Of a stretch of DNA of 49,610 nucleotides, positions 36,001 to 39,000 are shown piece after piece. How positions within the stretch are numbered: the stretch's first letter is position 1; each line of letters opens with the position of its first letter. The position numbers were made by a program. This DNA is from a virus. Its lineage: Duplodnaviria > Heunggongvirae > Uroviricota > Caudoviricetes. The stretch lies in the IMG/VR virus record IMGVR_UViG_2534681673_000009; one strand, written 5' to 3'.

Positions 36001-39000
36001 TCCCCTGGAGCCAGTAAAAGGTGCCGGTACCACTCTGTGGGTTTACAACGGCAAGGGTGATGCTTATGCAAACCCGTTGTCAGACGCTGACTGGCAGCGA
36101 CTGGCTAAGGTGAAGGATCTGACGCCGGGCGAGATGACGGCAGAATCCTACGATGATAACTACCTGGATGATGAAGACGCAGACTGGACCGCGACCGGGC
36201 AGGGGCAGAAATCTGCAGGTGATACCAGTTTTACGCTGGCCTGGAAACCGGGAGAGGAAGGTCAGAAAGGGCTTATAGGCTGGTTTGAAAGCGGCGATGT
36301 CCGGGCCTATAAAATCCGTTTTCCGAATGGCACGGTGGATGTGTTTCGTGGCTGGGTCAGCAGTATCGGTAAGGCCGTGACGGCGAAAGAAGTGATCACC
36401 CGCACGGTGAAAGTCACTAACGTGGGTAAACCTTCTGTAGCGGAAGAACGCAGCAAAATTACGCCGGTCAGTGCGATTAAGGTGACGCCTACATCCGGTA
36501 CGGTGGCAAAAGGGAAAACAACCACCCTGACGGTTTCTTTTGAGCCGGAAAGTGCAACCGACAAGACGTTCAGAGCGGTTTCCGCCGATCCGTCGAAAGC
36601 CACCATTAGTGTGAAAGATATGACAATTACGGTAAACGGCGTGGCGACAGGTAAGGTGCAGATCCCTGTGGTGAGCGGAAATGGTCAGTTCGCCGCAGTG
36701 GCTGAAGTCACCGTTACTGAAGCGGGCGCTGCAGGGTAAACGGAGGTAATACATGTTTCTGAAAACAGAACAATTTGAATATAACGGTGTGTCTGTCACG
36801 CTTTCCGAATTGTCTGCGCTGCAGCGTATCGAGCATCTTGCCCTCCTGAAACGGCGTGCAGAACAGGCAGAATCCAGCGGCAACCTGCAGGTAAGCGTGG
36901 AAGATCTCGTCAGAACCGGCGCGTTTCTGGTGGCGATGTCCCTGTGGCATAACCATCCACAGAAAACGCAGTCACCGTCAATGAATGAGGCCGTGATGAA
37001 GATAGAGCAGGAAGTGCTCACCACCTGGCCTGCCGATGCCATTGCCCGGGCGGAAGACGTGGTGTTGTGCCTGTCCGGGATGATCGAAGCTGTTCGTCCG
37101 GATACTGATATTACTGAAGTGGCGAAAAATAACACGCTGACTGATGATGATTTTTCTGCGGGAAAGTCTTCGACGGCGAGCTGAACTTTGCCCTCAGACT
37201 GGCGCGTGAGATGGGGAGACCCGACTGGCGCGCCATGCTTGCCGGGATGACATCCACCGAATATGCCGACTGGCACCGTTTTTACCGCACGCATTATTTT
37301 CAGGATACCCAGCTGGATATGCATTTTTCCGGGCTGACGTACGCTGTACTCAGCCTGTTTTTATACGATCCGGATATGCATCCCTCTGATTTCAGTCTGC
37401 TTGTCCCCCGGCATGAGGAAGAGCAGGTGGAGAGGCCGGATGAGGACAAAATGCTGATGCAGAAAGTGGCAGGACTTGCCGGAGGCGTCCGGTTCGGTGG
37501 GGACGGAGGGCGCGATATTTTATCGTCTGCGGATGTGGCGGATGTCATGGTGGATGATGCCGCATTAATGATGGCTTCAGCGGGGATTCCGGGAGGTGTG
37601 AGATATGTCCCAGCCGGTTGGTGATCTTGTTATTGACCTGAGTCTGGATGCTGTCCGTTTCGATGAGCAGATGAGCCGGGTAAGGCGTCATTTTTCAGGT
37701 CTGGATACCGACGCCAGAAAAACCGCCAGTGCTGTTGAACAGGGCCTGAGCCGCCAGGCGCTGGCTGCACAAAAAGCCGGGATTTCCGTCGGGCAGTATA
37801 AAGCGGCCATGCGAACCCTGCCCGCACAGTTTACGGATATCGCCACGCAGCTTGCCGGTGGTCAGAATCCCTGGCTCATCCTGCTGCAACAGGGCGGTCA
37901 GGTGAAGGACTCATTTGGCGGGATGATCCCCATGTTCCGGGGGCTTGCCGGTGCGATCAGCCTGCCGATGGTCGGGGTCACCTCGCTGGCGGTGGCGACC
38001 GGTGCGCTGGCGTACGCCTGGTACCAGGGGGATTCCACGCTTTCAGCGTTTAATAAAACCCTGGTTCTTTCCGGTAATCAGTCAGGACTGACGGCAGAGC
38101 GCATGCTGACGCTCTCCAGAACCGGGCAGGCGGCAGGGCTGACGTTTAACCAGGCGGGAGAGTCACTGGCAGCCCTGGTCAGTGCCGGTGTGCGTGGTGG
38201 TGAACAGTTTGATGCCATTAACCAGAGTGTGGCGCGTTTTGCGTCTGCCTCCGGTGTGGAGGTGGACAAGGTTGCAGAGGCTTTCGGAAAACTGACCACC
38301 GACCCGACGTCGGGACTGATGGCGATGGCGCGCCAGTTCCGTAACGTGACGGCAGAGCAGATTGCGTATGTTGCTCAGCTGCAGCGTTCCGGAGACGAGG
38401 CCGGTGCCTTACAGGCGGCGAATGATGCTGCCACGAAAGGCTTTGATGAGCAGACCCGCCGCCTGAAAGAGAACATGGGGACGCTGGAAACCTGGGCGGA
38501 TAAAACAGGGAAGGCGTTCAAATCGATGTGGGATGCCATTCTGGATATTGGTCGTCCTGATACCGCGCAGGAGATGCTGATTAAGGCAGAGACTGCGTTT
38601 AAGAAAGCAGACGACATCTGGAATCTGCGCAAGGATGATTATTTTGTTAACGATGAAGCGCGGGCGCGTTACTGGGATGATCGTGAAAAGGCCCGCCTTG
38701 CGCTTGAAGCCGCCCGAAAGAAGGCTGAACAGCAGAGTCAACAGGACAAAAATGCGCAGCAGCAGAGCGATACCGAAGCGTCACGGCTGAAATATACCGA
38801 AGAGGCGCAGAAGGCTTACGAACGCCTGCAGACACCGCTGGAGAAATATACCGCCCGTCAGGAAGAACTGAACAAGGCTCTGAGAGACGGGAAAATCCTG
38901 CAGGCGGATTACAACACGCTGATGGCGTCGGCGAAAAAGGATTATGAATCAACGCAGAAAAACCGAAGTCGTCAGGTGTCAGAGTGTCAGCCGGGGAGCG

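Follow-up and report, generated by a model that had tools for sequence, protein, structure and literature searches.

Is the tape-measure gene of this Stx1 prophage truly broken in two, or does the break exist only in its deposited sequence? The question arises from a stretch of 49,610 nucleotides (hereafter the window; IMG/VR virus record IMGVR_UViG_2534681673_000009), in which a lambda-like gene H is spread over two reading frames. The window corresponds to positions 4213588-4263197 of contig AEZK02000026.1 (NCBI assembly GCA_000215145.2, a 2011-12 draft of E. coli 5.0588), and an exact-sequence look-up of the 490-aa product of the first frame returned this one contig only. Strain 5.0588 originates from bovine small intestine (Pennsylvania) and is assigned to O8 and to phylogroup B1 (PMC11540155). 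The window opens within the host gene ybhC (1-1284), followed by the lambda-type integrase gene int (1422-2489), stx1A/B (17961-19184) and a complete lambda-like morphogenesis module, which together identify it as a Stx1a lambdoid prophage. Among complete genomes, the nearest relative of this prophage sits at attLambda in E. coli STEC1588. Between stx1B and a gene for a SASA-family esterase lies an Rfam STnc100 sRNA (19266-19479, + strand; 194 bits), directly after which an A8 run is found.

Gene H is located between the G/G-T chaperone genes and M-L-K-I-J (gene order Z-U-V-G-T-H-M-L-K-I-J), and the GGGAAAG slippery heptamer of the G/G-T genes is intact just upstream (37160-37166, + strand). 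The deposited sequence does not provide the single uninterrupted frame of an H gene. Its N-terminal piece (37605-39077, + strand) encodes 490 aa (EIH04816.1), and the frame changes at a run of five adenines (A5; 38958-38962, + strand), flanked by G at 38957 and C at 38963, where one base is missing relative to the A6 of all relatives. EIH04816.1 comprises 451 authentic codons and 39 out-of-frame codons, the latter reading NRSRQVSECQ... from residue 452 up to a TGA stop, with DYESTQKNRSRQVSECQPGSVRKTGRMQPCWRLKLSSGRWRSTAV as the C-terminal end of the ORF. In the +1 frame the DNA reads ...KPKSSGVRVSAGERQEDRAHAALL..., and the peptide that starts at the shift point (KPKSSGVRVSAGERQED...) continues through the C-terminal 401 codons of gpH (38963-40165, + strand, including the stop codon at 40163-40165). 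The start of this downstream piece was placed at GTG 38984 by mechanical ORF calling and at GTG 39074 in the deposited annotation (363 aa, EIH03255.1).

The initial annotation had proposed that this A5 run splits a lambda-like gpH over two ORFs, and that A6 would restore its continuity. Both peptides which it quoted proved to be exact, and the insertion of one A at the run did generate an ORF of 2562 nt, whose 853-aa product matches lambda gpH along its whole length (853/853 residues, 84% identity, no gaps). Pfam TMP_2 (PF06791) was detected in the 490-aa ORF (E 1.8e-68, residues 54-256), and Tape_meas_lam_C (PF09718) in the 363-aa downstream ORF (E 1.6e-21; residues 627-701 of the repaired protein). 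Considering the gap-free match to lambda gpH and the presence of the two domains in separate pieces, the two ORFs belong to a single, truly split gene and have not been paired by chance, and the gene is an ordinary tape measure of the lambda gpH type.

The A5 allele is confined to a single assembly. The run was A6 at 23 of the 23 other loci that were fetched (10 IMG/VR contigs, 2 metagenome contigs and 11 further loci), and A6 is kept even in H genes which have diverged by about 4-8%. Scans of IMG/VR and of the JGI/ENA metagenomes with an exact pattern permitting A5 or A6 revealed A6 only and no A5 allele; the same pattern gave no match of either length among GTDB species representatives, which is uninformative. 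A 61-nt query containing A5, run by BLAST against 5426 complete E. coli genomes, had matches at 42 places in 37 of them, all at 98.4% identity (a 62-nt span, which equals A6), and no 100% match was found. Intact related phages with A5 had been named at the outset as the finding that would contradict a lesion; none emerged, every other copy examined being A6.

The repaired 853-aa H is identical, word for word, to a protein (P0151; EFF7394938.1 and others) encoded in five other NCBI E. coli assemblies. The H nucleotide sequence equals the alleles of the P0151-bearing contigs except for the missing A, and in the alignments of the window with two of these contigs, which cover 10.8-12.7 kb, 3-5 substitutions and this one gap were the only differences. 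H of STEC1588 (WP_301001217.1) shows 99.1% identity, with its sole gap at the missing base, and the closest full-length protein representative (P0001) has five C-terminal differences from the repaired H.

Another pair of split H genes was considered in this study. PhiR5_1 (PV340545.1, L004:12233-14805) and PhiR12_2_star (PV340551.1, L005:11437-14009) are deposited lambda-like phages which were propagated on E. coli C and in which H is annotated as two CDSs. As potential examples of viable split-H phages they have no bearing on the A5 site, because their splits sit near the C-terminus, at other positions. Such splits could stem from sequencing errors, or the phages may tolerate a truncated C-terminus.

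A split gene might in principle still be functional. The N- and C-terminal halves could be produced separately and assemble together into a two-piece tape measure, and the GTG at 39074 does share bases with the TGA stop codon of the first ORF (GTGA), a layout with a superficial likeness to translational coupling. However, the split is private to one assembly, all H homologues are single chains of 851-865 aa, and the further short proteins of the same 90% cluster have been cut off at the end of a contig with their frame intact, not by a frameshift. Moreover, the first piece ends in 39 residues of nonsense, translated out of frame from the shift up to the stop, and the authentic residues 452-490 are missing from both pieces. 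We therefore rejected the two-piece gene, whose probability we consider to be practically nil.

Alternatively, A5 might be real, and -1 ribosomal frameshifting or transcriptional slippage at CAG AAA AAC might still yield some gpH of full length; this would amount to recoding or to phase-variable tail control. After a shift of -1 at AAA_AAC the product would again read QKKPK, exactly as in the wild type, and tail operons of the lambda type already use a -1 frameshift nearby, at the aforementioned GGGAAAG. Nevertheless, the two-frame layout occurs in no relative, all of which have A6 and one ORF. With CAG AAA AAC in the zero frame, the heptamer is G_AAA_AAC, which does not conform to the canonical X_XXY_YYZ; the 80 nt downstream fold no better than shuffled sequences (MFE -30 kcal/mol, versus -27.5 on average for the shuffles; z -0.81), and a Shine-Dalgarno-like stimulator is not visible upstream of the A run. 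A run of five adenines is also short for efficient slippage of RNA polymerase. Programmed or spontaneous recoding at the run was rejected on the non-canonical heptamer, the non-significant fold and the lack of conservation, and we regard it as very improbable. Equally improbable is a variant of the same idea, in which A5 acts as a slippage-prone switch: with a little full-length tape measure coming from low-level -1 ribosomal or transcriptional slippage, or from a subpopulation that has reverted to A6, the Stx1 prophage would throttle or phase-vary its production of tails.

The two remaining candidates are a genuine mutation and an error in the draft, and the other indels in the window bear on both. 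When about 65 proteins of STEC1588 relatives were compared with the window by tblastn, four genes were found to be frame-broken (holin S, H, a hok/gef-like gene and stf), while the other matchable genes were intact. Frame changes in S and stf had already been recorded in the initial annotation; the hok-like gene is the fourth broken gene. The gene of the class II holin S (22333-22549, + strand) contains one extra C at about 22391 (GGGAACCGGG instead of GGGAACGGG, in a comparison with STEC1588 only). The hok/gef-like toxin gene, located between J and stf (47319-47458, + strand), has A4 in place of A5 at 47336, A5 being present in 5/5 relatives compared. The repaired forms of both proteins (71 aa for the holin and 46 aa for the hok-like toxin) have word-for-word copies in at least 1000 contigs each. 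The fourth broken gene encodes the N-terminal, collagen-like part of the side tail fibre (stf; 47603-48870, + strand) and contains three indels (-A at 48145, +G at 48160 and -C at 48260), whose repair results in unbroken Gly-X-Y repeats over 422 aa. Two run-length changes are non-coding: T5 to T4 at 43387, and A9 to A8 at 19480 (the latter versus STEC1588 only). In site-by-site comparison, on which these tallies of private indels are based, the window was the sole discordant sequence among 5-13 relatives at 43387, 47336, 48145, 48160 and 48260.

The region between the tail genes I and J (42522-43433) comprises about 900 bp with no long ORF, a gap that is present in relatives too. At 43387 the window has T4 versus T5 in 12 relatives, and near 43405, just upstream of J, it has two fewer 7-bp CAGACAT units.

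A very recent, strain-private -1 deletion within A6, caused by replication slippage, might have inactivated H, as is generally expected of homopolymers as sites of spontaneous slippage; a run of six adenines is by nature a hot spot of slippage, and STEC commonly carry defective prophages. Four frame-broken genes in one prophage are also what a degenerating element would contain. On the other hand, three of these four genes repair to word-for-word known proteins, and the H lesion occurs in none of more than 60 related copies. The 401 codons past the lesion contain no stop, no indel and no nucleotide difference from the intact alleles, and the event, if real, must therefore have been extremely recent. 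The three stf indels fall within a span of 115 bp, inside a stretch of 485 bp which has no substitution versus the closest relative (L032), and neutral decay would produce such a cluster very rarely. In E. coli, spontaneous substitutions outnumber indels roughly ten to one; on this basis the stf pattern is that of consensus errors and not of decay. The excess of indels over substitutions is clear in stf (3 versus 0 in 485 bp) and weaker near H (one indel versus three substituted positions in 12.7 kb).

The 11.3 kb directly upstream of the lesion (27605-38957) are free of further private indels, and the A/T runs of at least 6 nt which were called in agreement with relatives number in the dozens within the window, which indicates that errors are not pervasive. 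To the right of the window, about 9.9 kb of host DNA contain no broken gene and one intergenic A7/A8 difference, although this is too little sequence to discriminate. The cleanness of the neighbouring 11 kb and of the host flank speaks for a real deletion, inasmuch as the assembly is not generally error-ridden. The same applies to genuine private SNPs: the lineage of the window carries private substitutions at 31094 and at 37363/37365, although the latter allele is shared with IMG/VR contig L042. Within gene T (37361-37366) the window has TTTTTATAC (Leu-Tyr), in contrast to TTTTTTTGC (Phe-Cys) in most relatives, and the presence of this allele in L042 makes it a natural variant and not an error. 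The private substitutions thus mark a distinct lineage, in which real mutation is possible.

The host flanks of the prophage do not match. To the right of window position 49610 (L016:10837-20672) there is a ykgJ-like gene, followed by potB, potA, pepT, roxA, phoQP and purB, whereas the right flank expected of an attLambda prophage is ybhB-bioA. In STEC1588 the ybhC/ybhB and potB sites hold two prophages in the same orientation, about 400 kb apart, with identical L, K and I proteins. A join running from ybhC through the tail genes to potB would consequently amount to the deletion of about 400 kb of core chromosome. Judging from these mismatched flanks, repeated prophage DNA was probably collapsed or wrongly joined in the draft, and what the window presents as one prophage may be a chimera of two. 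Contigs of Illumina-era relatives end at about 40.3-40.4 kb, just downstream of H, which is consistent with repeated DNA from this point onwards. An assembly context that looks collapsed or mis-joined is a further argument against a real deletion.

The initial annotation had left the choice between a decaying prophage and homopolymer sequencing errors, and these are still the only serious candidates, with the weight now moved to the technical one. The run-length change is confined to one draft, and repair of H, holin and hok reproduces, word for word, independently sequenced intact alleles; the private 1-nt indels are clustered and unaccompanied by substitutions, and host loci that do not belong together have been joined. 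These observations favour an artefact, and it is fairly likely that an A6 run was under-called as A5 in the deposited consensus (a homopolymer miscall). We infer that base calling or assembly, and not mutation, was the cause, and the split is probably not a biological feature. A genuine deletion in strain 5.0588 is a possible but rather unlikely source of the A5 run.

If the split is an artefact, the real DNA would contain one H ORF of 853 aa in an otherwise intact gene. Its product would act as the ruler which sets the length of the tail tube, as in lambda, brought in by the G/G-T chaperones and with the J-I-L-K-M tip complex as its site of nucleation. The significance of the finding would then be limited to annotation hygiene, EIH04816.1 and EIH03255.1 being halves of one ordinary tape-measure protein, and the prophage region of the draft (holin, hok, stf and flanks) would be unfit for calling the Stx1 phage defective.

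A real deletion, by contrast, would leave a product of 451 authentic N-terminal residues and 39 nonsense residues, devoid of Tape_meas_lam_C and of the glycine-rich C-terminal part. Amber mutants in lambda H make no tails, and a truncated tape measure is thus expected to block tail assembly, as the initial annotation had reasoned. This block holds only for a real lesion; by lambda genetics the phage would be tail-less by itself, and complementation by another lambdoid prophage supplying tails could bypass the defect. Together with the holin, hok and stf breaks, a real deletion would signify early prophage decay, locking stx1 in the chromosome. Even so, the split, if real, is routine private pseudogenisation, one more strain-private case of the well-known inactivation of prophages by homopolymer slippage. 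Its implications would extend only to the mobility of stx1 in one bovine O8 isolate, whose Stx1a phage would be unable to build its own tails.

To conclude, we compared the split H with known systems. Contraction of A/T runs of at least 5 nt is a classic error of flow sequencing, and several of the changes observed here are of that kind. As judged from the deposited consensus, the window resembles flow-based (pyrosequencing-type) drafts in the one-base contraction of an A run of at least 5 nt, in the privacy of this change to one draft, and in the presence of other private run-length changes. It differs from them in that several of the accompanying indels lie in short runs (1-3 nt) and not in long homopolymers. 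A literature search on the AEZK accession, strain 5.0588 and the JCVI sister strains found nothing on the sequencing platform. The alternative likeness is to the frameshifted morphogenesis genes of defective STEC prophages, a generally known pattern of decay. The repaired H closely resembles lambda gpH (NP_040595.1) in its length (853 aa), sequence (84% identity), domains (TMP_2 and Tape_meas_lam_C), gene order (V-G-T-H-M-L-K-I-J) and G/G-T slippery site, while the deposited H differs from it in being broken after codon 451 by a 1-nt deletion. At the site of the A run, we take lambda itself to have AAAAAG (..CTG AAA AAG CCG..) and not A6, which fits the TLKKPK seen in the lambda alignment. Unlike the window, the intact H alleles of Stx1a/lambdoid prophages in other E. 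coli (P0151, STEC1588 at attLambda and phage 1720a-02) all have A6 and one uninterrupted ORF.
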